A DNA stretch of 51,533 nucleotides, from the IMG/VR virus record IMGVR_UViG_2711768018_000019, one strand, 5' to 3'. The number at the start of each line of letters is the position of its first letter. Positions within the stretch are counted from its first letter, which is position 1. Source of the stretch: a virus. Taxonomy: Duplodnaviria > Heunggongvirae > Uroviricota > Caudoviricetes. A model generated the notes under the pieces. That model was not told where the DNA came from. It did not search any database and saw only the letters and a list, made by a program, of their open reading frames with translations. Shown here piece after piece: positions 26,701 through 48,873 of the stretch. Both the position numbers and the translations under genes were made by a program.

Positions 26701-29700
26701 TTTGGGGATTGATGCGGCAGAGTTTAAAAATGAAATTCCCCGTATCAAAAACCTTCTGAATGGTGCAGCCAGCGATGCAGAACGGTCTTCTGCCCGTATG
26801 CAGCGTTTTATGGAGCGTCAGACTCAGGCCGCCCGGCAGACAACGCAGGCGGCTTCTTCGGCTGCAACAGCCGCATCCGTCCATGCGCAGACGGTGGAGA
26901 AGAACGCACAGGCTCATGAACGCATGTCCCGCGAGGTGGAGAAAACCCGCCAGCGCATGGAGGCACTGAGCCAGAAAATGCGCGAGGAACAGGCGCAGGC
27001 CATGGCTCTGGCGGAGGCTCAGGATAAAGCGGCTGCTGCGTTTTATCGTCAGATTGACAGTGTGAAACAGGCCAGTGCGGGGCTGCAGGAATTACAGCGT
27101 ATTCAGCAGCAGATCCGACAGGCCAGAAACAGTGGCGGGATTGGTCAGCAGGATTATCTGGCGCTGATTTCTGAGGTTACGGCGAAAACCCGTGTTCTTA
27201 CACAGGCTGAGGAAGAGGCTACCCGACAGAAAGTGGCGTTTATCCGTCAGCTTAAAGAGCAGGCAACCCGCCAGAATCTTTCATCTTCTGAGTTGCTTCG
27301 TGCTAAGGCTGCCCAGCTGGGGGTAAGCAGTGCTGCAGAAGTGTATATCCGCAAAATGGAGCAGGCAGGAAAAGCCACGCATTCGCTGGGTCTGAAAAGT
27401 GCAGCAGCCCGCCAGGAGATAGGCGTTCTGATAGGTGAACTGGCCCGCGGCAATTTAGGGGCGCTGAGGGGGTCCGGAATAACGCTGGCTAACCGTGCCG
27501 GATGGATAGACACACTGATGTCACCGAAAGGCATGATGCTGGGCGGGGTTATTGGCGGTATTGCCGCGGCTGTCTATGGTCTGGGTAAAGCCTGGTATGA
27601 CGGTCAGAAGGAGGGGGAAGAATTTAACCGCCAGTTGTCGCTGACGGGGCATTATGCCGGAGTCACTGCCGGGCAGCTGTGGACGCTCAGTCGTGCTATT
27701 TCCGGGAATGGTATTACGCAACATGCTGCAGCCGGTGCGCTGGCTCAGGTGGTGGGGAGTGGTGCATTTCGTGGAAACGATATCGGTATGGTGGCGAGAG
27801 CTGCCGCACAGATGGAGCGATCGGTTGGCCAGTCGGTCAGCGATACCATAAATCAGTTTAAGCGGCTGAAGGATGATCCTGTAAATGCCGCGAAGGCTCT
27901 GGACAATGAGCTGCATTTTCTTACTGCCACTCAGCTTGAGCAGATACGCGTCCTTGGGGAACAGGGGCGGTCCAGTGATGCGGCACGGATAGCCATGTCT
28001 GCACTGGCAGAGGAAACCGGTCGGCGTACTGCGGATATTGATAATAACCTCAATGCGCTGGGCAGTACGCTGAAGTATCTGTCTGATTTATGGAGTCGTT
28101 TCTGGGATGCGGCCATGAATATTGGTCGTGAAGACTCGCTGGATGAACAGATTTCCGCTTTACAGGAGAAAGTGTCGCGGGCGAAAAGACTCCCCTGGAC
28201 GGCATCATCTTCTCAGGTTGAGTACGATCAGCAGCGTCTTAACGAGCTTCAGGAGAAAAAACGCCAGAAGGATTTGCAGGATGCAAAAGAGCAGGCAGAG
28301 CGGAATTATCAGGAGCAACAGAAACGCCGTAATGCTGAAAATGCTGCACTGAACCGGATGAATGAAACGGAAGCAGCACGACATCAGCGTGAAATTGCGC
28401 GTATTAATTCCATGCAGTACGCCGATCAGGCTGTCAGGGATGCGGCGATACAACGTGAAAATGAACGTTACGAGAAAGCCCTGGCATCCGGTAAGAAAAA
28501 AACACGCGAACCCCGTAATGATGAGGCCACCCGGTTATTGCTGCAGTACAGTCAGCAACAGGCACAGGTGGAAGGACAGATTGCTGCTGCCAGACAGTCA
28601 GCAGGCATTGCCACGGAAAGGATGACAGAAGCGCATAAACAGCTTCTGGCTCTGCAGCAGCGCATCAGCGACCTGGACGGGAAAAAACTGACGGCAGATG
28701 AAAAGAGTGTGCTGGCCCGTAAAGATGAACTGATTCAGGCACTGACGCTGCTGGATGTAAAACAGCAGGAGCTTCAGAAACAGACGGCACTCAACGAGCT
28801 GAAGAAAAAAACAATTCAGCTGACCAGTCAACTGGCTGAAGAAGAGCGCGCTCAGCGTCAGCAACATGACCTGGATATCGCCACGGTGGGTATGGGTGAT
28901 CAGCAGCGGCAGCGATATCAGGTACAACTGAGTCTTCGCCAGAAATACCAGCAACAGCTGGAGCAGTTGAGGCGGGATAGTGAGCAGAAAGGAACATATA
29001 ACACGGATGACTACAGAAAGGCCGAGCAGGCGCTGACGGAGAGCCTGAACCGACAACTGAATGAGAATCGCCGTTACTGGCAACAGCTTGAAGTTGTGCA
29101 GGGTAACTGGAAAAACGGAGTCCTGCGTGCATTTCAGGATTTTACCGTGGATGCAGATAATACGGCAGGAACAGCAGAACAGGTGTTCTCGTCAGCCTTC
29201 AGCAACATGGGAAATGGCCTGGCAACTTTTGTCACTACCGGCAAACTCAATTTCAAATCCTTCACCTCTTCTGTGCTGTCAGATATGGCGAAAATCCTGG
29301 CGCAGGCAACCATGATGAAATCGATAAAAGGGATTGGCAGTGTACTGGGATTTGATCTCAGCAGCCTTTCCCTGAATGCCAATGGGGGGATTTATCAGTC
29401 TGCTGATTTGAGTCGTTACAGTGGCACGGTGGTTAACCGTCCGACGTTTTTTGCTTTTGCAAAAGGCGCGGGTGTGATGGGGGAAGCGGGACCTGAAGCC
29501 ATTCTGCCACTGCGTCGTGGTGCTGACGGTAAGCTGGGGGTTGTGGCGGATATTGGTGGTTCAGGTATGGCGATGTTTGCCCCGCAGTACAACATCGAGA
29601 TCAATAACGATGGCACGAACGGGCAGATAGGTCCGGCTGCCCTGAAGGTGGTTTATGACCTTGGGAAAAAAGCGGCAGCGGACTTTATGCAACAGCAGGC

Positions 29701-29737
29701 CCGTGATGGTGGTCGGTTAAGTGGAGCATATCGGTAA
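26672..29737 (+). CDS. H: Tail tape-measure protein H (copy 1, diverged from lambda)
   Basis: 1021 aa from the ATG at 26672 (RBS ggaggtg). The C-terminal region (NNDGTNGQIGPAALKVVYDLGKKAAADFMQQQARDGGRLSG) parallels the lambda gpH C-terminus. Confidence 0.85.
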   Translation: MDQIANLVIDLGIDAAEFKNEIPRIKNLLNGAASDAERSSARMQRFMERQTQAARQTTQAASSAATAASVHAQTVEKNAQAHERMSREVEKTRQRMEALSQKMREEQAQAMALAEAQDKAAAAFYRQIDSVKQASAGLQELQRIQQQIRQARNSGGIGQQDYLALISEVTAKTRVLTQAEEEATRQKVAFIRQLKEQATRQNLSSSELLRAKAAQLGVSSAAEVYIRKMEQAGKATHSLGLKSAAARQEIGVLIGELARGNLGALRGSGITLANRAGWIDTLMSPKGMMLGGVIGGIAAAVYGLGKAWYDGQKEGEEFNRQLSLTGHYAGVTAGQLWTLSRAISGNGITQHAAAGALAQVVGSGAFRGNDIGMVARAAAQMERSVGQSVSDTINQFKRLKDDPVNAAKALDNELHFLTATQLEQIRVLGEQGRSSDAARIAMSALAEETGRRTADIDNNLNALGSTLKYLSDLWSRFWDAAMNIGREDSLDEQISALQEKVSRAKRLPWTASSSQVEYDQQRLNELQEKKRQKDLQDAKEQAERNYQEQQKRRNAENAALNRMNETEAARHQREIARINSMQYADQAVRDAAIQRENERYEKALASGKKKTREPRNDEATRLLLQYSQQQAQVEGQIAAARQSAGIATERMTEAHKQLLALQQRISDLDGKKLTADEKSVLARKDELIQALTLLDVKQQELQKQTALNELKKKTIQLTSQLAEEERAQRQQHDLDIATVGMGDQQRQRYQVQLSLRQKYQQQLEQLRRDSEQKGTYNTDDYRKAEQALTESLNRQLNENRRYWQQLEVVQGNWKNGVLRAFQDFTVDADNTAGTAEQVFSSAFSNMGNGLATFVTTGKLNFKSFTSSVLSDMAKILAQATMMKSIKGIGSVLGFDLSSLSLNANGGIYQSADLSRYSGTVVNRPTFFAFAKGAGVMGEAGPEAILPLRRGADGKLGVVADIGGSGMAMFAPQYNIEINNDGTNGQIGPAALKVVYDLGKKAAADFMQQQARDGGRLSGAYR

Positions 29738-30066
29738 TGGAGACGTTTCACTGGAAAGTGCGCCCGGATATGAATGTGGTATCAGAGCCGAAAGTGGTGA
29801 CAGTGAAGCTGGGCGATGGTTATGAACAGCGTCGTGCGGCGGGACTGAATAACCAGTTGTCGACTTACAGCGTGACGATACGTGTTCGTAAATGTGAACA
29901 CCCATCTTTAAAAGCCTTTCTGGAACGGCACGGTGGCGTCCGCGCATTTCAGTGGACGCCACCTTATGACTGGAAGCCGATCAGGGTGGTTTGTCGTAAA
30001 TGGTCGGCAAGCGTGGGGGCGTTGTGGGTAACCATAACGGCAGATTTTGAACAGGTCGTGGCATAG
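29737..30066 (+). CDS. M: Minor tail protein M (copy 1)
   Basis: 109 aa, colinear with lambda gpM (…GDGYEQRRAAGLN…TYSVT…WTPPYDWKPIRVVCRKWS…FEQVVA). Confidence 0.9.
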   Translation: METFHWKVRPDMNVVSEPKVVTVKLGDGYEQRRAAGLNNQLSTYSVTIRVRKCEHPSLKAFLERHGGVRAFQWTPPYDWKPIRVVCRKWSASVGALWVTITADFEQVVA

Positions 30067-30075
30067 GAGTCTCTG

Positions 30076-30774
30076 ATGCAGGATATTCCACAGGAAACAC
30101 ATCATGAGACGACACGCCTCACTCAGTCAGCCCAGGTGGTGCTCTGGGAAATCGATCTGACAGAGGTCGGTGGAGAACGTTATTTTTTCTGTAATGAGCA
30201 GAACGAAAAAGGTGAGCCGGTCACCTGGCAGGGGCGACAGTATCAGGCGTATCCCATTCAGGGGACGGGATTTGAACTGAACGGCAAGGGCAGTGCTGCC
30301 CGTCCGACACTGACGGTTTCTAACCTGCACGGCATGGTCACCGGGATGGCGGAAGATCTGCAGAGTCTGGTCGGCGGAACGGTGGTCCGGCGTAAGGTTT
30401 ACGCCCGTTTTCTGGATGCGGTGAACTTCGTCAACGGAAACAGTGACGCCGATCCGGAGCAGGAGGTGATCAGCCGCTGGCGCATCGAGCAGTGCAGCGA
30501 ACTGAGCGCGGTGAGTGCCTCCTTTGTACTGTCCACGCCGACGGAAACGGATGGCGCTGTTTTTCCGGGGCGCATCATGCTGGCCAACACCTGCACCTGG
30601 ACCTATCGCGGCGATGAGTGCGGTTATCACGGTCCGGCGGTCGCGGATGAATATGATCAGCCGACGTCCGATATCACGAAGGATAAATGCAGCAAATGCC
30701 TGAGCGGCTGTAAGTTTCGCAATAACGTCGGCAACTTTGGCGGCTTCCTTTCCATTAACAAACTTTCGCAGTAA
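30076..30774 (+). CDS. L: Minor tail protein L (copy 1)
   Basis: 232 aa, near-identical to lambda gpL (VVLWEIDLTEVGGERYFFCNEQNEKGEPVTWQGRQYQ…). Confidence 0.9.
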   Translation: MQDIPQETHHETTRLTQSAQVVLWEIDLTEVGGERYFFCNEQNEKGEPVTWQGRQYQAYPIQGTGFELNGKGSAARPTLTVSNLHGMVTGMAEDLQSLVGGTVVRRKVYARFLDAVNFVNGNSDADPEQEVISRWRIEQCSELSAVSASFVLSTPTETDGAVFPGRIMLANTCTWTYRGDECGYHGPAVADEYDQPTSDITKDKCSKCLSGCKFRNNVGNFGGFLSINKLSQ

Positions 30775-30779
30775 ATCCC

Positions 30780-31523
30780 ATGACAGAGACAGAATCAGCG
30801 ATTCTGGCGCACGCCCGGCGATGTGCGCCAGCGGAGTCGTGCGGCTTCGTGGTGAGAACACCGGAGGGGGAAAGATATTTTCCCTGCGTGAATATCTCCG
30901 GTGAGCCGGAGGAGTATTTCCGGATGTCGCCGGAGGACTGGCTGCGGGCAGAGATGCAGGGTGAGATTGTGGCGCTGGTCCACAGCCACCCCGGTGGTCT
31001 GCCCTGGCTGAGTGAGGCCGACCGGCGGCTGCAGGTGCAGAGTGATTTGCCGTGGTGGCTGGTCTGCCGGGGGGCGATTCACAAGTTCCGCTGTGTGCCA
31101 CATCTTACCGGGCGGCGCTTTGAGCACGGGGTGACGGACTGTTACACGCTGTTCCGGGATGCTTACCATCTGGCGGGGATTGAGATGCCGGATTTTCATC
31201 GCGGGGATGACTGGTGGCGTCACGGTCAGAATCTCTATCTGGATAATCTGGAGGCTACAGGGCTGTATCAGGTGCCGTTGTCAGCGGCGCAGCCGGGCGA
31301 TGTGCTGCTGTGCTGTTTTGGTTCATCGGTGCCGAATCATGCCGCCATTTACTGTGGTGACGGCGAGCTGCTGCACCATATTCCTGAACAACTGAGCAAA
31401 CGAGAGAGGTATACCGACAAATGGCAGCGACGCACACACTCCCTCTGGCGTCACCGGGCATGGCACGCATCTGCCTTTACGGGGATTTACAACGATTTGG
31501 CCGCCGCATCGACCTTCGAGTGA
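30780..31523 (+). CDS. K: Tail tip assembly protein K (copy 1)
   Basis: MTETESAILAHARRCAPAESCGFVV ... HSHPGG (JAB/MPN-like) ... NlpC/P60-like C-terminus, as in lambda gpK. Confidence 0.9.
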   Translation: MTETESAILAHARRCAPAESCGFVVRTPEGERYFPCVNISGEPEEYFRMSPEDWLRAEMQGEIVALVHSHPGGLPWLSEADRRLQVQSDLPWWLVCRGAIHKFRCVPHLTGRRFEHGVTDCYTLFRDAYHLAGIEMPDFHRGDDWWRHGQNLYLDNLEATGLYQVPLSAAQPGDVLLCCFGSSVPNHAAIYCGDGELLHHIPEQLSKRERYTDKWQRRTHSLWRHRAWHASAFTGIYNDLAAASTFE

Positions 31524-32068
31524 AAACGGGGTCCGAAGCCATCCGGGCGCTGGCCATGCAGATCCCGGCGTTTCGTCAGAAACTGAATGAGGGCTGGTAT
31601 CAGGTGCGCATTGCCGGGCGTGATGCAGGCGAAAATGAATTATCTGCCCGTCTTAATGAGCCGCTGGCAAATGGTGCCGTGATCCACATCGTGCCGCGTC
31701 TGGCGGGAGCTAAAAGTGGCGGTGTGTTTCAGGTGGTGCTTGGGGCGGCGCTGATTGCGGTGGCATGGTGGAACCCTGTGGGCTGGCTGGGGGCCGCGGC
31801 TGTATCGGGCATGTATGCGGCAGGGGCCAGTATGATCCTGGGCGGAGTGGCGCAGATGCTGGCACCGAAAGCCAGGACGCCCACGGCAGCCAGTACAGAT
31901 AACGGCAAACAGAACACCTATTTCTCCTCACTGGATAACATGGTTGCCCAGGGCAATGTTCTGCCTGTTCTGTACGGTGAAATGCGCGTGGGGTCACGTG
32001 TGGTTTCTCAGGAGATCAGCACGGCAGACGAAGGGGATGGTGGTCAGGTTGTGGTGATTGGTCGCTGA
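31421..32068 (+). CDS. I: Tail assembly protein I (copy 1)
   Basis: MAATHTLPLASPGMARICLYGDLQRFGRRIDLRVKTG ... matches lambda gpI; overlaps the 3' end of K. Confidence 0.85.
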   Translation: MAATHTLPLASPGMARICLYGDLQRFGRRIDLRVKTGSEAIRALAMQIPAFRQKLNEGWYQVRIAGRDAGENELSARLNEPLANGAVIHIVPRLAGAKSGGVFQVVLGAALIAVAWWNPVGWLGAAAVSGMYAAGASMILGGVAQMLAPKARTPTAASTDNGKQNTYFSSLDNMVAQGNVLPVLYGEMRVGSRVVSQEISTADEGDGGQVVVIGR

Positions 32069-32128
32069 TGCAAAATGTTTTATGTGAAACCGCCTCCGGG
32101 CGGTTTTGTCGTTTATGGAGCGTGAGGA

Positions 32129-34124
32129 ATGGGTAAAGGCAGCAGTAAGGGGCATACCCCGCGCGAAGCAAAGGACAACCTGAAGTCCACGCAGTTGCTG
32201 AGTGTGATCGATACCATCAGCGAAGGGCCGGTTGAAGGTCCGGTGGATGGATTAAAAAGCGTGCTGCTGAACAGTACACCGGTGCTGGACAGTGAGGGGA
32301 ATACCAACATCTCTGGTGTCACGGTGGTGTTCCGGGCAGGTGAGCAGGAACAGACACCGCCGGAGGGATTTGAATCATCAGGTTCCGAGACGGTACTGGG
32401 TACGGAAGTGAAATACGACACGCCGATCACCCGGACCATCACGTCGGCAAACATTGACCGACTGCGTTTTACCTTCGGTGTACAGGCACTGGTGGAAACC
32501 ACCTCAAAGGGAGACAGGAATCCGTCTGAAGTTCGCCTGCTGGTTCAGATACAGCGTAACGGTGGCTGGGTGACGGAAAAAGACATCACCATTAAGGGCA
32601 AAACCACCTCGCAGTATCTGGCCTCGGTGGTGGTGGGTAACCTGCCGCCGCGCCCGTTCAATATACGGATGCGCAGGATGACGCCGGACAGCACCACAGA
32701 CCAGCTGCAGAACAAAACGCTCTGGTCGTCATACACCGAAATCATCGATGTGAAACAGTGCTACCCGAACACGGCACTGGTCGGCGTGCAGGTGGATTCG
32801 GAGCAGTTCGGCAGCCAGCAGGTGAGCCGTAATTATCATCTGCGCGGGCGCATTCTGCAGGTGCCGTCGAGCTATAACCCGCAGACGCGGCAATACAGCG
32901 GTATCTGGGACGGAACGTTTAAGCCAGCATACAGCAACAACATGGCCTGGTGTCTGTGGGATATGCTGACCCATCCGCGCTACGGCATGGGGAAACGTCT
33001 TGGTGCGGCGGATGTGGACAAATGGGCGCTGTATGTCATCGGCCAGCATTGCGATCAGTCGGTGCCGGACGGTTTTGGCGGCACGGAGCCGCGCATCACC
33101 TGTAATGCGTACCTGACCACACAGCGCAAGGCGTGGGATGTGCTCAGTGATTTCTGCTCGGCGATGCGCTGTATGCCGGTATGGAACGGGCAGACGCTGA
33201 CGTTCGTGCAGGACCGACCGTCGGATAAGGTGTGGACCTATAACCGCAGTAATGTGGTGATGCCGGATGATGGTGCGCCGTTCCGCTACAGCTTCAGCGC
33301 CCTGAAGGACCGCCATAATGCCGTTGAGGTGAACTGGATTGACCCGAATAACGGCTGGGAGACGGCGACAGAGCTTGTGGAGGACACGCAGGCCATTGCC
33401 CGTTACGGTCGTAACGTCACGAAGATGGATGCTTTTGGCTGTACCAGCCGGGGGCAGGCACACCGCGCCGGGCTGTGGCTGATTAAAACAGAACTGCTGG
33501 AAACGCAGACCGTGGACTTCAGCGTGGGTGCCGAAGGGCTTCGCCATGTACCGGGCGATGTCATTGAAATCTGCGATGATGACTATGCCGGTATCCGCAC
33601 CGGCGGGCGCGTGCTGGCGGTAAACAGCCAGACCCGGACGCTGACGCTCGACCGTGAAATCACGCTGCCATCTTCCGGCACCACGCTGATAAGCCTGGTT
33701 GACGGGCAGGGGAGTCCGGTCAGCGTGGAGGTTCAGTCCGTCACCGACGGCGTGAAGGTGAAAGTGAGCCGTGTTCCTGACGGCGTTGCTGAATACAGCG
33801 TATGGGGGCTGAAGCTGCCGACGCTGCGCCAGCGCCTGTTCCGCTGCGTGAGTATCCGTGAGAACGACGACGGCACGTATGCCATCACTGCCGTGCAGCA
33901 TGTACCGGAAAAAGAGGCCATCGTGGATAACGGGGCGCACTTTGACGGCGACCAGAGCGGCACGGTAAATGGTGTCACGCCGCCAGCGGTGCAGCACCTG
34001 ACCGCAGAAGTCACCGCAGACAGCGGGGAATACCAGGTGCTGGCCCGCTGGGACACGCCGAAGGTGGTGAAGGGCGTGAGCTTCCTGCTTCGCCTGACCG
34101 TGGCAGCGGATGACGGCCGTGAGC
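32129..34124 (+). CDS. J: Tail tip/host-specificity protein J (copy 1), 3' end lost in an assembly gap
   Basis: MGKGSSKGHTPREAKDNLKSTQLLSVIDTISEGPVEGPVDGLKSVLLNSTPVLDSEGNTNISGV ... matches lambda gpJ; the coding sequence runs into the N-run at 34125. Confidence 0.85.
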
Positions 34125-34374
34125 NNNNNNNNNNNNNNNNNNNNNNNNNNNNNNNNNNNNNNNNNNNNNNNNNNNNNNNNNNNNNNNNNNNNNNNNNNNN
34201 NNNNNNNNNNNNNNNNNNNNNNNNNNNNNNNNNNNNNNNNNNNNNNNNNNNNNNNNNNNNNNNNNNNNNNNNNNNNNNNNNNNNNNNNNNNNNNNNNNNN
34301 NNNNNNNNNNNNNNNNNNNNNNNNNNNNNNNNNNNNNNNNNNNNNNNNNNNNNNNNNNNNNNNNNNNNNNNNNN
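34125..34374. other. Assembly gap (250 N)
   Basis: Run of n characters in the sequence. Confidence 1.
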
Positions 34375-34375
34375 G

Positions 34376-35209
34376 AGCGATACCGAAGCGTCACGGCTGA
34401 AATATACCGAAGAGGCGCAGAAGGCTTACGAACGGCTGCAGACGCCGCTGGAGAAATATACCGCCCGTCAGGAAGAACTGAACAAGGCACTGAAAGACGG
34501 GAAAATCCTGCAGGCGGATTACAACACGCTGATGGCGGCGGCGAAAAAGGATTATGAAGCGACGCTGAAAAAGCCGAAACAGTCCGGCGTGAAGGTGTCT
34601 GCGGGCGATCGTCAGGAAGACAGTGCTCATGCTGCCCTGCTGACGCTTCAGGCAGAACTCCGGACGCTGGAGAAGCATGCCGGAGCGAATGAGAAAATCA
34701 GCCAGCAGCGCCGGGATTTGTGGAAGGCAGAAAGTCAGTTCGCGGTACTGGAGGAGGCGGCACAACGTCGCCAGCTGTCCGCACAGGAGAAATCCCTGCT
34801 GGCGCATAAAGACGAGACGCTGGAGTACAAACGCCAGCTGGCTGCACTTGGTGACAAGGTTACGTATCAGGAGCACCTGAATGCGCTGGCGCAGCAGGCG
34901 GATAAATTCGCACAGCAGCAACGGGCAAAACGGGCAGCCATTGATGCGAAAAACCGGGGGCTGACTGACCGGCAGGCAGCGCGGGAAGCCACGGAACAGC
35001 GTCTGAAGGAACAGTATGGCGATAATCCGCTGGCGCTGAATAACGTCATGTCAGAGCAGAAAAAGACCTGGGCGGCTGAAGACCAGCTTCGCGGGAGCTG
35101 GATGGCAGGCCTGAAGTCCGGCTGGAGTGAGTGGGAAGAGAGCGCCACGGACAGTATGTCACAGGTTAAAAGTGCAGCCACGCAGACCTTTGATGGTATT
35201 GCACAGAAT
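34376..35209 (+). CDS. H: Tape-measure protein H, internal fragment of a second lambda-like copy, bounded by gaps
   Basis: SDTEASRLKYTEEAQKAYERLQTPLEKYTARQEELNKALKDGKILQADYNTLMAAAKKDYE ... matches the middle of lambda gpH, sitting between two N-runs. Confidence 0.8.
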
Positions 35210-35514
35210 NNNNNNNNNNNNNNNNNNNNNNNNNNNNNNNNNNNNNNNNNNNNNNNNNNNNNNNNNNNNNNNNNNNNNNNNNNNNNNNNNNNNNNNNNNN
35301 NNNNNNNNNNNNNNNNNNNNNNNNNNNNNNNNNNNNNNNNNNNNNNNNNNNNNNNNNNNNNNNNNNNNNNNNNNNNNNNNNNNNNNNNNNNNNNNNNNNN
35401 NNNNNNNNNNNNNNNNNNNNNNNNNNNNNNNNNNNNNNNNNNNNNNNNNNNNNNNNNNNNNNNNNNNNNNNNNNNNNNNNNNNNNNNNNNNNNNNNNNNN
35501 NNNNNNNNNNNNNN
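35210..35514. other. Assembly gap (305 N)
   Basis: Run of n characters. Confidence 1.
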
Positions 35515-35811
35515 TTTGTCTTCACGAAGGAGGCAACCAGCCGGATTGGCGTGGGGAATCTCTACCGGCTGATGCGCGGCTATGCGGAAGGTGGTTATGT
35601 GGGCGGTGCCGGAAGTCCGGCGCAGATGCGGCGGGCTGAAGGCATTAATTTTAATCAGAACAATCACGTGGTGATTCAGAACGACGGTACGAATGGTCTG
35701 CCAGGTCCACAGATGATGAAGGCCGTGTATGACATGGCCCGCAAGGGTGCCCGTGATGAAATTCAGACACAGATGCGTGATGGTGGCCTGTTCTCCGGAG
35801 GTGGACGATGA
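35515..35811 (+). CDS. H: Tape-measure protein H, C-terminal fragment (copy 2)
   Basis: FVFTKEATSRIGVGNLYRLMRGYAEGGYVG ... IQTQMRDGGLFSGGGR matches the lambda gpH C-terminus; stop overlaps the ATG of M'. Confidence 0.8.
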   Translation, partial: FVFTKEATSRIGVGNLYRLMRGYAEGGYVGGAGSPAQMRRAEGINFNQNNHVVIQNDGTNGLPGPQMMKAVYDMARKGARDEIQTQMRDGGLFSGGGR

Positions 35812-36137
35812 AAACCTTCCGCTGGAAAGTGAAACCCGGTATGGATGTGGCTTCGGCCCCTTCTGTAAGAAAGGTGCGCTTTGGTGATGGCTATTCCCAG
35901 CGAGCGCCTGCCGGGCTGAATGCCAACCTGAAAACGTACAGCGTGACGCTTTCTGTCCCCCGTGAGGAGGCCATGGTACTGGAGTCGTTTCTGGAAGAGC
36001 ACGGGGGCTGGAAAGCCTTTCTGTGGACGCCGCCTTATGAGTGGCGGCAGATAAAGGTGACCTGCGCAAAATGGTCGTCGCGGGTCAGTATGCTGCGTGT
36101 TGAGTTCAGCGCAGAGTTTGAACAGGTGGTGAACTGA
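35808..36137 (+). CDS. M: Minor tail protein M (copy 2, lambda-type)
   Basis: MKTFRWKVKPGMDVAS ... FEQVVN; closer to lambda gpM than copy 1 is. Confidence 0.9.
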   Translation: MKTFRWKVKPGMDVASAPSVRKVRFGDGYSQRAPAGLNANLKTYSVTLSVPREEAMVLESFLEEHGGWKAFLWTPPYEWRQIKVTCAKWSSRVSMLRVEFSAEFEQVVN

Positions 36138-36835
36138 TGCAGGATATCCGGCAGGAAACACTGAATGAATGCACCCGTGCGGAGCAGTCGGCCAGCGTGG
36201 TGCTCTGGGAAATCGATCTGACAGAGGTCGGTGGAGAACGTTATTTTTTCTGTAATGAGCAGAACGAAAAAGGTGAGCCGGTCACCTGGCAGGGGCGACA
36301 GTATCAGCCGTATCCCATTCAGGGGAGTGGTTTTGAACTGAATGGCAAAGGCACCAGTACGCGCCCCACGCTGACGGTTTCTAACCTGTACGGTATGGTC
36401 ACCGGGATGGCGGAAGATATGCAGAGTCTGGTCGGCGGAACGGTGGTCCGGCGTAAGGTTTACGCCCGTTTTCTGGATGCGGTGAACTTCGTCAACGGAA
36501 ACAGTGACGCCGATCCGGAGCAGGAGGTGATCAGCCGCTGGCGCATTGAGCAGTGCAGCGAACTGAGCGCGGTGAGTGCCTCTTTTGTACTGTCCACGCC
36601 GACGGAAACAGATGGCGCTGTTTTTCCGGGACGTATCATGCTGGCCAACACCTGCACCTGGACCTATCGCGGCGATGAGTGCGGTTATCACGGTCCGGCG
36701 GTCGCGGATGAATATGACCAGCCAACGTCCGACATCACGAAGGATAAATGCAGCAAATGCCTGAGTGGCTGTAAGTTTCGCAATAACGTCGGCAACTTTG
36801 GCGGCTTCCTTTCCATTAACAAACTTTCGCAGTAA
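36137..36835 (+). CDS. L: Minor tail protein L (copy 2)
   Basis: Near-identical to copy 1 and to lambda gpL. Confidence 0.9.
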   Translation: MQDIRQETLNECTRAEQSASVVLWEIDLTEVGGERYFFCNEQNEKGEPVTWQGRQYQPYPIQGSGFELNGKGTSTRPTLTVSNLYGMVTGMAEDMQSLVGGTVVRRKVYARFLDAVNFVNGNSDADPEQEVISRWRIEQCSELSAVSASFVLSTPTETDGAVFPGRIMLANTCTWTYRGDECGYHGPAVADEYDQPTSDITKDKCSKCLSGCKFRNNVGNFGGFLSINKLSQ

Positions 36836-36840
36836 ATCCC

Positions 36841-37261
36841 ATGACAGAGACAGAATCAGCGATTCTGGCGCACGCCCGGCGATGTGCTCCAGCGGAGTCG
36901 TGCGGCTTCGTGGTAAGAACGCCGGAGGGGGAAAGATATTTCCCCTGCGTGAATATCTCCGGTGAGCCGGAGGCGTATTTCCGTATGTCGCCGGAAGACT
37001 GGCTGCAGGCAGAGATGCAGGGTGAGATTGTGGCACTGGTCCACAGCCACCCCGGTGGTCTGCCCTGGCTGAGTGAGGCCGACCGGCGGCTGCAGGTGCA
37101 GAGTGATTTGCCGTGGTGGCTGGTCTGCCGGGGGGCGATTCACAAGTTCCGCTGTGTGCCACATCTTACCGGGCGGCGCTTTGAGCACGGGGTGACGGAC
37201 TGTTACACGCTGTTCCGGGATGCTTACCATCTGGCGGGGATTGAGATGCCGGATTTTCATC
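36841..37261 (+). CDS. K: Tail protein K (copy 2), N-terminal part, truncated by a gap
   Basis: Identical in organisation to copy-1 K up to ...GIEMPDFH, then the N-run. Confidence 0.8.
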
Positions 37262-37498
37262 NNNNNNNNNNNNNNNNNNNNNNNNNNNNNNNNNNNNNNN
37301 NNNNNNNNNNNNNNNNNNNNNNNNNNNNNNNNNNNNNNNNNNNNNNNNNNNNNNNNNNNNNNNNNNNNNNNNNNNNNNNNNNNNNNNNNNNNNNNNNNNN
37401 NNNNNNNNNNNNNNNNNNNNNNNNNNNNNNNNNNNNNNNNNNNNNNNNNNNNNNNNNNNNNNNNNNNNNNNNNNNNNNNNNNNNNNNNNNNNNNNNNN
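37262..37498. other. Assembly gap (237 N), flanked by near-identical 114-bp segments
   Basis: Sequence 37148-37261 and 37499-37612 are the same K-gene segment with about 6 substitutions, i.e. overlapping contig ends from non-identical alleles. Confidence 1.
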
Positions 37499-38173
37499 TT
37501 CCGCTGTGTGCCGCATCTCACCGGGCGGCGCTTTGAGCACGGGGCGACGGACTGTTACACGCTGTTCCGGGATGCTTATCATCTGGCTGGGATTGAGATG
37601 CCGGATTTTCATCGCGGGGATGACTGGTGGCGTAACGGTCAGAATCTCTATCTGGATAATCTGGAGGCCACAGGGCTGTATCAGGTGCGTATTGCCGGGC
37701 AGGATGTTAGCACGTCCGGATTAACGGCACAGTTACATGAGGCTCTGCCTGACGGCGCTGTGATTCATATTGTTCCCAGAGTCGCCGGGGCCAAGTCAGG
37801 TGGTGTATTCCAGATTGTCCTGGGAGCAGCCGCCATTGCCGGATCATTCTTTACCGCCGGAGCCACCCTTGCAGCATGGGGGGCTGCCATTGGTGCCGGT
37901 GGTATGACCGGCATTCTGTTTTCTCTCGGTGCCAGTATGGTGCTCGGCGGTGTGGCTCAGATGCTGGCACCGAAAGCCAGAACTCCCCGCACACAGACAA
38001 CGGATAACGGTAAGCAGAACACCTATTTCTCCTCACTGGATAACATGGTTGCCCAGGGCAATGTTATGCCTGTTCTGTATGGTGAAATGCGCGTGGGGTC
38101 ACGTGTGGTATCTCAGGAGATCAGCACGGCAGACGAAGGGGACGGTGGTCAGGTTGTGGTGATTGGTCGCTGA
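37499..38173 (+). CDS. In-frame K-I hybrid ORF (K segment joined to lambda-type gpI at a shared YQV codon stretch)
   Basis: ...LEATGLYQV|RIAGQDVSTSGLTAQLHEALPDGAVIHIVPRVAGAKSGG...: the K C-terminus and I N-terminus are missing relative to copy 1. The I part matches lambda gpI more closely than copy 1 does. Confidence 0.6.
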   Translation, partial: FRCVPHLTGRRFEHGATDCYTLFRDAYHLAGIEMPDFHRGDDWWRNGQNLYLDNLEATGLYQVRIAGQDVSTSGLTAQLHEALPDGAVIHIVPRVAGAKSGGVFQIVLGAAAIAGSFFTAGATLAAWGAAIGAGGMTGILFSLGASMVLGGVAQMLAPKARTPRTQTTDNGKQNTYFSSLDNMVAQGNVMPVLYGEMRVGSRVVSQEISTADEGDGGQVVVIGR

Positions 38174-38233
38174 TGCAAAATGTTTTATGTGAAATCGCCT
38201 CCGGGCGGTTTTATCGTTTATGGAGCATGACGA

Positions 38234-39593
38234 ATGGGTAAAGGCAGCAGTAAGGGGCATACCCCGCGCGAAGCGAAGGACAACCTGAAGTCCACGCAGC
38301 TGCTGAGTGTGATCGATGCCATCAGCGAAGGGCCGGTTGAAGGTCCGGTGGATGGATTAAAAAGCGTGCTGCTGAACAGTACGCCGGTGCTGGACAGTGA
38401 GGGGAATACCAACATCTCCGGCGTCACGGTGGTGTTCCGGGCAGGTGAGCAGGAGCAGTCACCGCCGGAGGGATTTGAATCCTCCGGCTCCGAGACGGTG
38501 CTGGGTACGGAAGTGAAATATGACACGCCGATCACCCGGACCATCACGTCGGCAAACATTGACCGACTGCGTTTTACCTTCGGTGTACAGGCACTGGTGG
38601 AAACCACCTCAAAGGGGGACAGGAATCCATCGGAAGTCCGCCTGCTGGTTCAGATACAGCGTAACGGTGGCTGGGTGACGGAAAAAGACATCACCATTAA
38701 GGGCAAAACCACCTCGCAGTATCTGGCCTCGGTGGTGGTGGATAACCTGCCGCCGCGCCCGTTTAATATCCGGATGCGCAGAATGACGCCGGACAGCACC
38801 ACAGACCAGCTGCAGAACAAAACGCTCTGGTCGTCATACACCGAAATCATCGATGTGAAACAGTGCTACCCGAACACGGCACTGGTCGGCGTACAGGTGG
38901 ATTCGGAGCAGTTCGGCAGCCAGCAGGTGAGCCGTAATTATCATCTTCGCGGGCGCATTCTGCAGGTGCCGTCGAACTATAATCCGCAGACGCGGCAATA
39001 CAGCGGTATCTGGGACGGAACGTTAAAACCGGCATACAGCAACAACATGGCCTGGTGTCTGTGGGATATGCTGACCCATCCGCGCTATGGCATGGGGAAA
39101 CGTCTTGGTGCGGCAGATGTGGATAAATGGGCGCTGTATGTCATCGGCCAGTACTGTGACCAGTCGGTGCCGGACGGCTTTGGCAGCACGGAGCCGCGCA
39201 TCACCTGTAATGCCTGGCTGACCACACAGCGCAAGGCGTGGGATGTGCTCAGTGATTTCTGCTCGGCGATGCGCTGTATGCCGGTATGGAACGGGCAGAC
39301 GCTGACGTTCGTGCAGGACCGACAGTCGGATAAGGTGTGGGCCTATAACCGCAGTAATGTGGTGATGCCGGATGATGGCGCGCCGTTCCGCTACAGTTTC
39401 AGCGCCCTGAAAGACCGCCATAATGCCGTTGAGGTGAACTGGATTGACCCGGATAACGGCTGGGAGACGGCGACAGAGCTTGTGGAGGATACGCAGGCCA
39501 TTGTCCGTTACGGTCGTAACGTCACGAAGATGGATGCCTTTGGCTGTACCAGCCGGGGGCAGGCACACCGCGCCGGGCTGTGGCTGATTAAAA
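38234..39593 (+). CDS. J: Tail protein J (copy 2), N-terminal part up to a gap
   Basis: Near-identical to copy-1 J and to lambda gpJ; interrupted by an N-run. Confidence 0.85.
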
Positions 39594-39915
39594 NNNNNNN
39601 NNNNNNNNNNNNNNNNNNNNNNNNNNNNNNNNNNNNNNNNNNNNNNNNNNNNNNNNNNNNNNNNNNNNNNNNNNNNNNNNNNNNNNNNNNNNNNNNNNNN
39701 NNNNNNNNNNNNNNNNNNNNNNNNNNNNNNNNNNNNNNNNNNNNNNNNNNNNNNNNNNNNNNNNNNNNNNNNNNNNNNNNNNNNNNNNNNNNNNNNNNNN
39801 NNNNNNNNNNNNNNNNNNNNNNNNNNNNNNNNNNNNNNNNNNNNNNNNNNNNNNNNNNNNNNNNNNNNNNNNNNNNNNNNNNNNNNNNNNNNNNNNNNNN
39901 NNNNNNNNNNNNNNN
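39594..39915. other. Assembly gap (322 N)
   Basis: Run of n characters. Confidence 1.
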
Positions 39916-39917
39916 CT

Positions 39918-40353
39918 GAATACAGCGTGTGGGGGCTGAAGCTGCCGACGCTGCACCAGCGATTGTTCCGCTGCGTGAGTATCCGTGAGAACGACGACGG
40001 CACGTATGCCATCACCGCCGTGCAGCATGTGCCGGAAAAAGAAGCCATCGTGGATAACGGGGCGCACTTTGACGGCGACCAGAGCGGCACGGTGAATGGT
40101 GTCACGCCGCCAGCGGTGCAGCACCTGACTGCCGAAGTCACCGCAGACAGCGGGGAATATCAGGTGCTGGCGCGCTGGGACACGCCGAAGGTGGTGAAGG
40201 GCGTGAGCTTCCTGCTCCGTCTGACCGTAACAGCGGATGACGGCAGTGAGCGGCTGGTCAGCACGGCCCGGACGACGGAAACCACTTACCGCTTCACACA
40301 ACTGGCGCTGGGGAACTACAGGCTGACAGTCCGGGCAGTAAATGCGTGGGGGC
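39918..40353 (+). CDS. J: Tail protein J (copy 2), middle fragment
   Basis: EYSVWGLKLPTLHQRLFRCVSIRENDDGTYAITAVQHVPEKEAIVDNGAHFDG... matches the lambda gpJ central region. Confidence 0.85.
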
Positions 40354-40396
40354 NNNNNNNNNNNNNNNNNNNNNNNNNNNNNNNNNNNNNNNNNNN
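40354..40396. other. Assembly gap (43 N)
   Basis: Run of n characters. Confidence 1.
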
Positions 40397-40398
40397 CC

Positions 40399-41673
40399 CC
40401 GGCAGCGCCGTCGCGGATTGAGCTGACGCCGGGCTATTTTCAGATAACCGCCACGCCGCATCTTGCGGTTTATGACCCGACGGTACAGTTTGAGTTCTGG
40501 TTCTCGGAAAAACGGATTGCGGATATCAGGCAGGTTGAAACCAGCGCGCGTTATCTTGGTACGGCACTGTACTGGATAGCCGCCAGTATCAATATCAAAC
40601 CGGGCCATGATTATTACTTTTATATCCGCAGTGTGAACACCGTCGGCAAATCAGCATTCGTGGAGGCTGTCGGTCGGGCGAGCGATGATGCGGAAGGTTA
40701 CCTGGATTTTTTCAAAGGCCAGATAACCGAATCCCATCTCGGCCAGGAGCTGCTGGAAAAAGTCGACCTGACGGAGGATAACGCCAGCAGACTGGAGGAG
40801 TTTTCGAAAGAGTGGAAGGACGCCAACGATAAGTGGAATGCCATGTGGGGCGTCAAAATTGAGCAGACCAAAGACGGCAAACATTATGTCGCGGGTATTG
40901 GCCTCAGCATGGAGGACACGGAGGAAGGCAAACTGAGCCAGTTTCTGGTTGCCGCTAACCGTATCGCGTTTATTGACCCGGCAAACGGGAATGAAACGCC
41001 GATGTTTGTGGCGCAGGGCAACCAGATATTCATGAATGACGTGTTCCTGAAACGCCTGACGGCTCCCACCATTACCAGCGGTGGAAATCCGCCGGCATTT
41101 TCCCTGACACCAGACGGAAAGCTGACCGCTAAAAATGCGGATATCAGCGGTAATGTGAATGCAAATTCAGGGACGCTCAACAATGTCACGATTAACCAGA
41201 ACTGTACGATTAAGGGCATGCTGGAGGCGACCCAGGTCAGAGGAGATTTCGTTAAAGCTGTATCAAAAGCCTTCCCGAAAAAAGTCGGTACGTGGGGTAA
41301 CACGGAAACACCAAACGGTACGGTTACAGTCACCATCAGCGATGATCATAACTTTGACCGCCAGATTATTATTCCGCCCATTATTTTTAACGGTATAGCG
41401 TATGACGATCCGGGGAGCGGAAATAACCCAGGAGGCACGCGATACACGGGTTATGGTTTTGAAGTTCGCAAAAACGGCGTATTAATCGCATCCAGAGAAA
41501 CTAAAGGGGCCATTCCCGGTAGTTACAGTGCAGTTATTGATATGCCGAGTGGCAGGGGAAGCGTCACTCTGGAGTTTAAGATTTTCCAGAAAGGCAATCA
41601 GGGGGCAGGCAATATCACCGACTGTACGGTGATTGTGACCAAAAAAGCCGCTTCCGGCATCAGTATTCGTTGA
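40399..41673 (+). CDS. J: Tail protein J (copy 2), C-terminal receptor-binding part
   Basis: [38 protein letters not shown] ... [10 protein letters not shown] matches the lambda gpJ C-terminus. Confidence 0.85.
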
Positions 41674-41743
41674 AATATTTATAACCCCAATAAAGGGCGT
41701 CAGGAATGACGCCTTTTTTATTGCAGAAAAGCGAGAGGTAATT

Positions 41744-42343
41744 ATGCGTAAAGTTTGTGCAGCAATTTTGTCCGCAGCCATTTGTCTGGCCGTATCCGGT
41801 GCGCCTGCATGGGCGTCTGAACATCAGTCCACGCTGAGCGCGGGGTATCTTCATGCCCGGACGAACGTTCCCGGCAGTGATGATCTGAACGGGATTAACG
41901 TGAAATACCGTTATGAGTTTACGGACACACTGGGGCTGGTGACGTCGTTCAGCTATGCAGGAGACAAGAATCGCCAGCTGACCCGTTACAGCGATACCCG
42001 CTGGTATGAAGATTCCGTGCGTAACCGCTGGTTCAGCGTGATGGCGGGGCCGTCTGTGCGCGTGAATGAATGGTTCAGCGCGTATGCGATGGCGGGTGTG
42101 GCTTACAGCCGTGTGTCGACTTTTTCCGGGGATTATATCCGCGTAACTGACAATAAGGGGAAAACGCACGATGTGCTGACCGGAAGTGATGACGGTCGCC
42201 ACAGCAACACGTCTCTGGCGTGGGGAGCTGGCGTGCAGTTTAACCCGACCGAATCCGTGGCCATTGATATTGCTTATGAAGGCTCCGGCAGTGGCGACTG
42301 GCGCACTGACGGTTTCATCGTGGGTGTCGGTTATAAATTCTGA
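41744..42343 (+). CDS. lom: Lom outer-membrane protein (Ail/Lom family)
   Basis: Signal peptide plus beta-barrel; the C-terminus IDIAYEGSGSGDWRTDGFIVGVGYKF is identical to the lambda Lom C-terminus as I recall it. Confidence 0.85.
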   Translation: MRKVCAAILSAAICLAVSGAPAWASEHQSTLSAGYLHARTNVPGSDDLNGINVKYRYEFTDTLGLVTSFSYAGDKNRQLTRYSDTRWYEDSVRNRWFSVMAGPSVRVNEWFSAYAMAGVAYSRVSTFSGDYIRVTDNKGKTHDVLTGSDDGRHSNTSLAWGAGVQFNPTESVAIDIAYEGSGSGDWRTDGFIVGVGYKF

Positions 42344-42369
42344 TTAGCCAGGTAACACAGTATTATGAC

Positions 42370-42397
42370 AGCCCGCCGGTTCAGGCGGGCTTTTTTG
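42370..42397 (+). terminator. Rho-independent terminator after lom
   Basis: gcccgccggttcaggcgggc followed by tttttt. Confidence 0.6.
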
Positions 42398-42407
42398 TGG
42401 GGTGAAT

Positions 42408-45400
42408 ATGGCAGTAAAGATTTCAGGTGTACTGAAAGACGGCACAGGAAAACCGGTACAGAACTGCACAATCCAGCTGAAAGCAAAACGTAACAGCACC
42501 ACGGTGGTGGTGAACACGCTGGCCTCAGAAAATCCGGATGAAGCCGGGCGTTACAGCATGGACGTTGAGTACGGGCAGTACAGCGTTATTCTGTTGGTGG
42601 AGGGATTCCCGCCGTCACATGCCGGGACCATCACCGTGTATGAAGATTCCCGACCCGGTACGCTGAATGATTTTCTCGGTGCCATGACGGAGGATGATGC
42701 CCGTCCTGAGGCACTGCGCCGCTTTGAACTGATGGTGGAAGAGGTGGCGCGTAACGCGTCCGCGGTGGCACAGAACACGGCAGCCGCGAAGAAATCAGCC
42801 AGCGATGCCAGCACATCAGCCCGTGAGGCGGCAACCCGTGCGACTGATGCTGCAGGCTCAGCACGAGCAGCCAGCACGTCAGCCGGACAGGCCGCTTCGT
42901 CGGCTCAGTCTGCGTCTTCCAGCGCAGGAACGGCATCAGCAAAGGCCACTGAAGCATCAAAAAGTGCTGCCGCTGCAGAGTCCTCAAAAAGCGCGGCGGC
43001 CACCAGTGCCGGTGCGGCGAAAACGTCAGAAACGAATGCGGCAGCGTCACAACAATCAGCTGCCACTTCTGCATCCACCGCGACCACGAAAGCGTCAGAA
43101 GCAGCCACCTCAGCCAGAGATGCGTCGGCTTCAAAAGAGGCGGCAAAATTATCAGAAACGAGCGCAGCTTCGAGCGCCAGTAATGCCGCTTCCTCGGCAA
43201 CGGCGGCAGGAAATTCCGCGAAGGCGGCAAAGACGTCTGAGACAAACGCTAAGTCCTCTGAAACGGCAGCAGCACAGAGTGCCTCCGCAGCAGCAGGCTC
43301 AAAAACAGCGGCTGCGTCGTCTGCCAGTGCAGCGTCAACAAGTGCCGGGCAGGCCTCAGCCAGTGCTAGCGCCGCCGGAAAATCGGCAGAAAGCGCCGCA
43401 TCGTCCGCTTCAACAGCCACAACGAAGGCTGGCGAAGCCACTGAACAGGCCAGTGCAGCAGCGAGGTCTGCTTCCGCAGCGAAGACATCGGAGACGAACG
43501 CGAAAGCGTCGGAGACCAGCGCAGAATCCTCAAAAACGGCTGCCGCATCGTCCGCCAGTTCGGCGGCGTCATCGGCATCATCGGCGTCTGCTTCAAAAGA
43601 TGAGGCGACCAGACAAGCGTCCGCAGCGAAGGGCAGCGCCACGACAGCATCCACGAAGGCGACAGAGGCTGCTGGCAGTGCGACGGCGGCAGCACAGAGC
43701 AAAAGTACGGCGGAATCCGCGGCAACGCGCGCCGAGACAGCGGCAAAACGTGCAGAGGATATTGCATCCGCCGTGGCGCTTGAGGATGCGAGCACGACGA
43801 AAAAGGGGATAGTACAGCTCAGTAGTGCGACTAATAGCACGTCTGAAACGCTGGCGGCAACGCCAAAGGCAGTAAAAGCAGCCAATGACAATGCTGAGAA
43901 ACGTCTGCAGAAAGACCAGAACGGCGCTGATATACCCGATAAGGGACGCTTCCTGAACAACATTAACGCGGTCAGTAAAACAGACTTTGCTGATAAGCGT
44001 GGTATGCGTTATGTGCGGGTTAACGCTCCTGCAGGTGCAACATCTGGAAAATATTACCCTGTTGTTGTTATGCGTTCTGCTGGCTCAGTAAGCGAACTGG
44101 CATCAAGGGTCATTATCACCACGGCAACGCGAATCGCAGGCGATCCGATGAATAACTGCGAGTTTAACGGATTTGTTATGCCTGGTGGCTGGACTGACAG
44201 GGGGCGTTATGCTTATGGAATGTTCTGGCAATATCAAAACAATGAACGAGCCATCCACTCAATAATGATGAGTAATAAGGGCGATGATTTGCGCTCTGTG
44301 TTCTATGTTGATGGCGCTGCTTTCCCTGTTTTTGCGTTTCTCGAAGATGGCCTGTCAATATCCGCACCTGGTGCTGATCTCGTTGTTAATGATACGACCT
44401 ATAAGTTTGGGGCAACAAATCCGGCGACTGAATGTATCGCGGCGGACGTTATCCTTGATTTTAAGAGTGGGCGTGGTTTTTATGAGTCTCATTCGTTAAT
44501 CGTTAACGATAACTTGTCGTGCAAAAAACTTTTTGCCACAGACGAAATTGTAGCGCGTGGTGGTAATCAGATTCGAATGATAGGTGGGGAGTATGGTGCA
44601 TTATGGCGTAATGATGGCGCTAAAACTTACCTGCTGCTTACCAATCAAGGTGATGTTTATGGTGGCTGGAATACATTAAGACCGTTTGTTATTGATAACG
44701 CAACCGGCGAACTGGTTATTGGAACCAAACTGTCTGCAAGTCTGAACGGTAACGCATTGACAGCAACAAAGCTGCAAACGCCAAGACTGGTTTCTGGTGT
44801 TGAGTTTGATGGTTCCAAAGATATTACTTTAACCGCCGCGCATGTGGCTGCTTTTGCCAGAAGGGCAACGGATACATATGCCGATGCGGATGGTGGCGTT
44901 CCATGGAATGCCGAATCAGGCGCTTACAATGTCACCCGCTCTGGCAACAGCTATATTCTGGTTAACTTCTATACCGGAGTCGGAAGTTGCCGGACCTTGC
45001 AGATGAAGGCGCATTACAGAAATGGTGGTCTGTTCTACCGTTCTTCAAGAGACGGTTATGGTTTTGAGGAAGACTGGGCAGAAGTTTATACCTCGAAAAA
45101 TCTTCCACCAGAAAGCTACCCAGTCGGTGCACCAATCCCGTGGCCATCAGATACCGTTCCGTCTGGTTATGCCCTGATGCAGGGACAGACTTTTGACAAA
45201 TCTGCTTACCCGAAACTTGCAGCCGTTTATCCGTCAGGTGTGATCCCTGATATGCGTGGCTGGACGATTAAGGGCAAACCTGCCAGTGGTCGGGCCGTAT
45301 TGTCTCAGGAACAGGACGGCATTAAATCGCATACCCACAGCGCCAGCGCATCCAGTACGGATTTGGGGACGAAAACCACATCGTCGTTTGATTACGGCAC

Positions 45401-46390: not shown

Positions 46391-46502
46391 TCGTTTTGTG
46401 ATATGCCGCAGCAACTTGTCATGGCAGGATACTGCGGCTGATTTGTGAATTTAAATAGTGTGTTTATTGCTTTATATATAAAGGATTTAATGGATTACAT
46501 AT

Positions 46503-48624: not shown

Positions 48625-48873
48625 TTAATGAACAAACCACTCGTCAGCAGACTCCCAGGTATCTTTCAGAGTCTCCTGAACAAAAGTTTTAGCTGAATCT
48701 TTATCAGCGGTGCGCGTAACAGAAAGGCCATCGTTGCTGGTGGCTTTTACGATCACTTCTACATCGTCATAACGTTTACTGATGCGTCGGGTTAATTCTT
48801 CCTTTAACGCATCCACAGCACCGGTTGGCATTTTAGTCATTTTTTCTTTGGCTATGCAGATTTCAATACGCAT
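48625..48873 (-). CDS. dinI: DinI-family damage-inducible protein
   Basis: 82 aa; [11 protein letters not shown] ... [16 protein letters not shown] matches the DinI family. Preceded by two LexA boxes. Confidence 0.75.

Follow-up and report, generated by a model that had tools for sequence, protein, structure and literature searches.

The apparent second tail module in a draft of an E. coli dusA prophage is almost certainly an assembly artefact

Two series of lambda-like tail genes

The window, the whole stretch of 51,533 nucleotides analysed here, is 100% identical to scaffold CWWD01000004.1 of an E. coli draft assembly (GCA_001255455.1), with which it also shares its five runs of N, and it contains two successive series of tail genes, all on the plus strand. 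The first begins with open reading frames for H (26672-29737), M (29737-30066), L (30076-30774), K (30780-31523) and I (31421-32068), which on the identical source scaffold correspond to the Pfam families TMP_2/Tape_meas_lam_C, Phage_min_tail, Phage_tail_L, Prok-JAB with NLPC_P60, and Lambda_tail_I, respectively. A sequence-only reading had described a complete H-M-L-K-I-J set at 26672-34124, which holds for the genes from H to I and not for J, of which the 5' 1996 nt (32129-34124; 665 of 1137 codons) are present before gap 1 ends it. The gene order and Pfam families of this copy are like those of the H-M-L-K-I-J-lom-stf-tfa region of lambda; its H (1021 aa, 25% amino acid identity to lambda H) and M (56% to lambda M) belong to a lineage other than lambda's, and its head module, with the HK97-like fusion of ClpP protease and capsid annotated in E. 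coli A14, is also unlike lambda's.

The second series is present as the same reading had it, an H'-M'-L'-K'-(K-I hybrid)-J' succession of fragments broken up by the five runs of N after the first module. An internal fragment of H' (34375-35209; nt 1161-1995 of lambda H) is succeeded by a contig (35515-37261) with the 3' end of H' (35515-35811), M' (35808-36137), L' (36137-36835) and the 5' part of K' (36841-37261), by a further contig (37499-39593) in which a K' fragment (37499-37688) is fused in frame to I' (to 38173) and followed by the 5' part of J' (38234-39593), and by a 438-nt contig from the middle of J' (39916-40353). H, M, L, K, I and J are colinear with their Pfam families in both series, as in a lambda-type tail tip, with J truncated in copy 1 and H', K', I' and J' represented by fragments in copy 2. 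To the right lie the 3' end of J (40397-41673), lom (41744-42343), stf (42408-45806) and tfa (45806-46390), within one contig (40397-51533) that runs on without a break into dusA and pspG.

All of copy 2 is of lambda type, with nucleotide identities to the lambda genes of 97.8% for H', 98.5% for M', 98.0% for L', 94.8% for I' (79% for copy-1 I) and 96.2% for the 5' part of J', which bears out the earlier observation that its H', M' and I' are closer to lambda than are their copy-1 counterparts. Two parts of the lambda module are missing from it, the 5'-terminal 1160 nt of H and a stretch of about 316 nt in K/I. The H' contig at 34375-35209 is 98.3% identical to a lambda-like prophage of strain AF39, and the copy-2 contigs together are colinear with one lambda-like tail module at 96-98% identity (8026 nt here, 7944 nt in AF39). 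Among the matches listed, all other occurrences of the exact M' and L' proteins are in ordinary single lambda-like head-tail modules.

Comparison of the two copies gives matches (E ~0 in each case) between 35988-37261 and 29917-31200 (90.9%), 37499-37688 and 31086-31275 (96.3%), 37928-39593 and 31823-33488 (95.4%), and 39916-40251 and 33789-34124 (94.9%). L and the 5' part of K, previously called near-identical, are mostly 95-100% identical, yet not uniformly so, as one interval in 5' L is only 83% identical and exact identity within L and K is confined to the last 226 nt before gap 3. No DNA match was found between copy-1 H and the H' fragment at 34375-35209, M and M' share about 56% protein identity, and the M region is only about 60% identical in nucleotides. 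The divergence of H from H' and of M from M' thus indicates that the copies derive from different phage lineages, to which we refer as prophage A (copy 1, at dusA) and prophage B (copy 2).

Gaps, contig edges and the K-I hybrid

The gaps had been placed at the boundaries of shared sequence, which is accurate for gap 1 (34125-34374; 250 N) and for the left edge of gap 3 (37262-37498; 237 N), applies weakly to gap 4 (39594-39915; 322 N), and fails for gap 2 within H' (35210-35514; 305 N). At gap 1, which we regard as a false join of prophage A J to prophage B mid-H', the copy-1 contig ends 6 nt past the last base that discriminates A from B, and the junction of J codon 665 with mid-H' is represented by the 250 N only. 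The contig preceding gap 4 ends in 55 nt of exact match common to the A, B and C alleles. At gap 3 the neighbouring contigs are inconsistent with each other: they overlap by 115 nt in K coordinates, the same part of K being present twice with five differing sites, and the upstream contig is 100% copy-1 allele over the final 226 nt. The stated length of gap 2 compares with about 270 nt in lambda-like references, that of gap 4 with 300 nt in copy 1 and the references, and that of gap 5 (40354-40396; 43 N) with 41 nt in sister assemblies.

The K-I hybrid, also noted previously, is borne out by the sequence itself. K' extends as far as 37688, where an 11-nt microhomology (GTATCAGGTGC; 37678-37688) links it in frame to I', with about 316 nt missing and a junction string of GGGCTGTATCAGGTGCGTATTGCCGGGCAGG. 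When the hybrid was used as a 602-nt query, the best 15 complete E. coli matches listed all needed two pieces and spanned 934 nt; the 191-aa hybrid product is recorded on CWWD01000004.1 alone. GapFiller closes gaps where the overlap is 10 nt or longer (PMC3446322). On balance the hybrid would seem somewhat more probably an artefact of gap closure on the 11-nt overlap than a real deletion.

Sister assemblies and finished genomes

Seven drafts encode exactly the same 1132-aa stf protein (ATG at 42408) and are considered here as sister assemblies; they represent different isolates or assemblies, which may not all be of the same clone as this isolate, and they have 0 mismatches along a 6873-nt stretch from int to tyrB. 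In the gapless L006, positions 1-7848 correspond to window 26277-34124 (99.82%) and positions 7992-19126 to window 40399-51533 (99.78%), and from these two alignment blocks it follows that 143 nt lie between 34124 and 40399. The same place is occupied in the window by the 6274 nt from 34125 to 40398, 1157 N among them. The 143-nt link, present in UDRL01000005.1, is the same in L004 and L007. Of the mid-J' contig at 39916-40353, the first 336 nt carry the B allele and the last 102 nt differ from this link by one mismatch.

Copy-1 J continues past 34124 in L006, L004, L007 and A14. Joining its 5' part to the 143-nt link and 40399-41673 produces an intact 1137-aa open reading frame with no internal stops and two amino acid differences from the J of L006, and the 3' end at 40397-41673 is the true continuation of copy-1 J. 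The region 40397-46390 is 99.8% identical to L006, where it follows the copy-1 module without a gap. The ownership of the right-end genes, considered uncertain in the sequence-only reading, is resolved by this arrangement in L006 and A14: because the right-hand contig continues to dusA and pspG, and because in L006 and A14 alike the copy-1 module is followed by this right end, lom, stf, tfa, the RT island and int are genes of the copy-1 dusA prophage.

One tail module each is found in L006, L004 and the complete A14. The A14 dusA prophage (NZ_CP028760.1, 340.9-380.4 kb) has the same gene order and integration beside dusA as the prophage in the window, its single tail module preceding lom, stf, tfa, RT, SLATT, DinI, int and dusA. 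The two are 99.91% identical over 29,625 nt (4500-34124), with 99.9% across the copy-1 tail genes at 26672-32068, and this alignment ends exactly at 34124; identity is 99.5% over 45610-51533. In contrast, identity is only 95-96% in the C-terminal part of J, in lom and in most of stf, and J is 1165 aa long in A14 as against 1137 aa here, a difference that looks like a swapped host-range segment.

Upstream of the shared stf, five different arrangements occur among the seven sister assemblies, and several include gapped pseudo-tandems of their own. The differences between the assemblies are clustered in short patches of the repeated tail genes; where L006 agrees with A14, the window has paralog alleles. 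A search for prophage B in the sisters with the exact M' and L' proteins returned thousands of blocks, with only unrelated genomes among the matches listed. Queries with copy 1, copy 2, contig 35515-37261 and 40397-45700 found no finished genome of the same strain among 5,426 complete E. coli genomes, and as the best matches to copy 2 are 97-98.5% identical, the location of prophage B is not readable from a finished genome. Matching tail-module places per complete E. coli genome number a median of 2-3 and up to 16.

Origin of the extra tail stretch

The apparent double tail module is not a biological feature. The second module is almost certainly an assembly artefact, in which four contigs of another lambda-like prophage have been placed in a 143-nt break within J, and a repeat-induced scaffolding error in this short-read E. 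coli draft is very probably its cause. The proposal that contigs of two lambdoid prophages had been joined through repeats is thus upheld by the 143-nt bridge in L006 and L004 and the single module of A14. We suggest that prophage A at dusA has one tail module, with lom, stf, tfa, RT-SLATT, DinI and int behind it, and that the same genome would contain at least one further lambdoid prophage, B, whose H, M and I are of lambda type and whose L, K, 3' part of I, and J are 95-100% identical to those of prophage A. The A contig breaks within J at the exact point where the A and B sequences converge, and the scaffolder would then have threaded the four short B contigs, which reach from mid-H' to mid-J', in between the A contig and the shared or right-hand contig. 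The true continuation of J after 34124 would be expected to start GGCTGGTCAGC, and prophage B is probably located elsewhere in the same genome.

This pattern has no essential difference from known repeat-induced misjoins among lambdoid paralogs in E. coli drafts of the SSPACE/GapFiller type, which likewise have joins of N only and of irregular lengths, breaks where prophages begin to share sequence, short repeat contigs between long ones, mixed alleles at contig ends, and sister assemblies in disagreement, although in the present case the pipeline is deduced. SSPACE and GapFiller are greedy and can make false joins, according to their own users and pipeline authors (PMC5320598). The pipeline used for this accession was presumably Velvet/SSPACE/GapFiller-like; the assembly accessions were not found in the portion of the supplement text of the Sanger pipeline paper that was consulted.

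It is very unlikely that the structure is genuine and that J of the dusA prophage took up, by insertion or recombination, a partial lambda-like module (mid-H' to mid-J') to form a real tandem pair of tail modules. In favour of this, the contigs were linked by the scaffolder, the lengths of the gaps within and after copy 2 are near those of the references, and lambdoid prophages recombine, as the J C-terminal, lom and stf segment that differs from A14 between near-identical flanks exemplifies. However, the junction of J with H' would be non-homologous and unique and should have assembled, and consists of 250 N instead; the contig halts at the very point of A/B convergence; sisters whose backbone is identical cross the site with 143 nt; and 115 nt of K are doubled at the flanks of gap 3 with alleles in conflict. 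The five arrangements across seven sister assemblies, and the record of the exact K-I hybrid product from this scaffold only, argue further against it. In the specific form of an illegitimate recombination that placed a 6-kb piece of a second prophage in the dusA-prophage J of this isolate alone, it is equally improbable; if true, the prophage would be defective, its two tail modules both partial, and would encode a K-I fusion protein.

We likewise give little credence to an origin of the copy-2 contigs from a second E. coli strain contaminating the culture. Prophage B was not located elsewhere in the assembly and its contigs are short and fragmented, as contamination would have it, but several lambdoid tail modules per genome are the norm and extra tail-module alleles appear at the join in sister assemblies too, so contamination is not needed to explain the contigs. 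The remaining alternative, that the prophage recently duplicated its own tail module in tandem and that the copies then diverged, accords with the head-to-tail repetition of the H-M-L-K-I-J order and had been entertained in the sequence-only reading, but its probability is negligible, given that H and H' lack DNA similarity, that M' is 98.5% identical to lambda M in nucleotides and copy-1 M only 56% in amino acids, with the same 56% or so between M and M' themselves, that copy 2 begins in mid-H and copy 1 ends in mid-J, that high identity does not extend throughout, and that the junction between the copies consists of Ns with no sequenced novel joint. Tandem prophages at dusA were also considered and rejected; int directly abuts dusA, and copy 2 lies inside J and not past an att site.

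With the extra stretch regarded as a scaffolding error, the provirus record (CWWD01000004.1, about 10032-61564) is unfit as evidence for duplicated tail modules, for an oversized lambdoid genome, or for a K-I fusion protein. The actual prophage would be about 6.1 kb shorter, with one intact 1137-aa J, and its right-end cargo – lom, stf, tfa, a UG17 RT with SLATT, DinI and the dusA-type integrase – is assignable to the copy-1 prophage. We note that sister drafts from the same presumed pipeline have five false or ambiguous arrangements at a single repeat hub.

Layout of the tail region

The first tail module, which we refer to as copy 1, comprises genes H (26672-29737), M (29737-30066), L (30076-30774), K (30780-31523) and I (31421-32068), followed by only the initial 1996 nt of J (32129-34124); expected Pfam families are present in the annotation of these tail genes on the identical scaffold CWWD01000004.1. 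The copy-1 J had been described as complete, but it is cut at codon 665 by the first of five N-runs, located at 34125-34374 (gap 1, 250 N), 35210-35514 (gap 2, 305 N), 37262-37498 (gap 3, 237 N), 39594-39915 (gap 4, 322 N) and 40354-40396 (gap 5, 43 N). Among them lie four short contigs of copy 2, whose genes are designated with primes: an internal fragment of the tape-measure gene H' (34375-35209); the 3' end of H', then M', L' and the beginning of K' (35515-37261); a piece of K' fused with I', then the 5' part of J' (37499-39593); and a 438-nt mid-J' piece (39916-40353). The sequence-only reading, which described a gapped second tail series after the first, is essentially right in this respect. 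A gap-free right-hand contig extends from 40397 to the window end, and carries the J 3' end, lom, stf, tfa, an RT-SLATT pair, DinI, int, dusA and pspG.

The tail region in sister assemblies and a finished genome

Seven NCBI draft assemblies have a scaffold that encodes the identical stf protein (42408-45806). Among these scaffolds, CWWD01000004.1 (GCA_001255455.1) matches the window at 100%, down to all five N-runs, and is its source. Between int and tyrB (6873 nt) the seven drafts show 0 mismatches, and they therefore represent one lineage with the same prophage at dusA. In the gapless sister L006 (UDRL01000005.1), positions 1-7848 align to 26277-34124 of the window at 99.82% and positions 7992-19126 align to 40399-51533 at 99.78%, such that the end of the copy-1 contig and the start of the right-hand contig are 143 nt apart. 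This link is the same in sisters L004 and L007, and the complete genome of strain A14 has the same sequence at the site. Joining 32129-34124, the 143-nt link and 40399-41673 yields an intact J of 1137 aa with no stops, differing from the L006 J by 2 aa. A14 matches 4500-34124 at 99.91%, ungapped and stopping exactly at gap 1, and 45610-51533 at 99.5%; it has one tail module, and its genes are annotated in the order H-M-L-K-I-J-lom-stfR-tfa-RT-SLATT-DinI-int-dusA. Comparison with L006, L004, L007 and A14 thus shows that 34125-40398 (6274 nt) stands where 143 nt belong. This bridge supports the suspected joining of two prophages into a chimeric scaffold, and the second tail module is not a biological feature; that the isolate carries a private but real rearrangement is very improbable.

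Assembly breakpoints and the source of the second series

The contig 5' of gap 1 stops 6 nt past the last base that discriminates the two copies, and beyond this convergence the small copy-2 contig (39916-40353) has 1 mismatch in 102 nt to the sisters' link; the contig end is a repeat fork. The 115 nt on either side of gap 3 occupy the same K coordinates with 5 differing sites, and therefore cannot be adjacent parts of one gene; the stretch upstream of the gap has the copy-1 allele throughout (100%).

The seven sister assemblies present five distinct arrangements upstream of the same stf: one tail module (L006 and L004); the chain of copies 1 and 2 (the window); the 5' part of the copy-1 J, then a gapped J3'-lom-stf'-tfa', then J3'-lom-stf (L007); a third module (H of 1077 aa, M of 112 aa) joined via a gap in J (L005 and L010); and the third module with its own J and lom, then an stf' fragment, then lom-stf (L009). 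The third module type therefore meets the same right end in three sisters, and L007 and L009 have gapped pseudo-tandems of J3'/lom/stf of their own. The right-hand contig seems to act as a hub at which ambiguous joins arise in this lineage. Differences between sisters cluster as short patches within the repeated tail genes; in copy-1 patches 30522-30573 (L) and 32461-32560 (J) the window differs where L006 and A14 agree, carrying alleles of copy 2 or the third module at 12 of 14 sites, which reflects either assembler mixing of paralog alleles or gene conversion.

Self-comparison of the window gives identities between copies 2 and 1 of 90.9% (35988-37261 and 29917-31200), 96.3% (37499-37688 and 31086-31275), 95.4% (37928-39593 and 31823-33488) and 94.9% (39916-40251 and 33789-34124), with no DNA similarity between H' and the copy-1 H. 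Identity across L and the start of K, reported as near-identical between copies, is mostly 95-100% (83% in one interval of 5' L), and the 226 nt that lead up to gap 3 do not differ at all. Copy 2 was correctly judged nearer to lambda, with nucleotide identities of 97.8% for H, 98.5% for M, 98.0% for L and 94.8% for I, whereas copy 1 has 25% (aa), 56% (aa), 92.3% (nt) and 79% (nt) respectively. The copies derive from two phage lineages, and tandem duplication of a tail module is thus ruled out.

In contig 37499-39593, K' (to 37688) meets I' at an 11-nt exact microhomology, GTATCAGGTGC (37678-37688), with loss of about 316 nt, leaving a single open frame. The best 15 complete-genome matches to a 602-nt junction query are all in two pieces, spanning 934 nt, and the 191-aa hybrid product is on record only on scaffold CWWD01000004.1. 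GapFiller closes a gap once its two extensions share an overlap of 10 nt or more (PMC3446322), and the authors of the widely used Velvet/SSPACE/GapFiller pipeline call it greedy and prone to false joins (PMC5320598); the assembly accession was not found in the accessible portion of that paper's supplement. A gap-closure artefact is somewhat favored over a real deletion in the copy-2 prophage.

The copy-2 contigs and the contig that follows are colinear with one tail module as found in genuine lambda-like prophages, such as that at the ydfJ site of strain AF39 (96-98% identity; 7944 nt there versus 8026 nt in the window). Proteins identical to M' and L' are encoded in thousands of assemblies and, among the places listed, always within an ordinary portal-to-tfa lambda-like module; E. 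coli genomes have a median of 2-3 lambda-like tail modules.

Right end, integration site and head genes

Ownership of lom, stf, tfa, the RT and int had been considered uncertain. Because contig 40397-51533 is unbroken into dusA, and the same right end follows the copy-1 module in L006, L004 and A14, these genes and those for SLATT and DinI can be assigned to the copy-1 prophage. Over the J C-terminal part, lom and stf (about 40400-45600), identity to A14 is 95-96%, versus 99.8% to L006 and 99.5-99.9% to A14 in the remaining prophage; the lineage thus has a different segment here from that of A14, in which J is 1165 rather than 1137 aa. This is ordinary lambdoid mosaicism, in which a host-range segment appears to have been exchanged between otherwise identical prophages.

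The reverse transcriptase (46503-48402, minus strand) matches PADLOC RT_UG17 (E 1e-158) and is adjoined by an RT-associated SLATT protein (E 1.5e-56). Judged by these matches, the two form a candidate anti-phage pair of the DRT class, which the prophage carries as cargo in the interval from tfa to DinI/int; the pair is also present in A14 and all sister assemblies.

The tyrosine integrase gene int (48934-50031, minus strand) lies immediately next to dusA (50120-51157), and the window, which starts at an ATG, finishes on the pspG stop codon (51533), indicating a prophage integrated at dusA; the limits are as would be given by a provirus call cut back to whole genes. By the A14 annotation, the copy-1 prophage has head genes (17210-23495) that are not lambda-like, namely those for a DUF1441 small terminase, a large terminase, a portal and a ClpP-like protease/major capsid fusion. 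The prophage is therefore mosaic, pairing an HK97-type head module with a tail module in lambda order.
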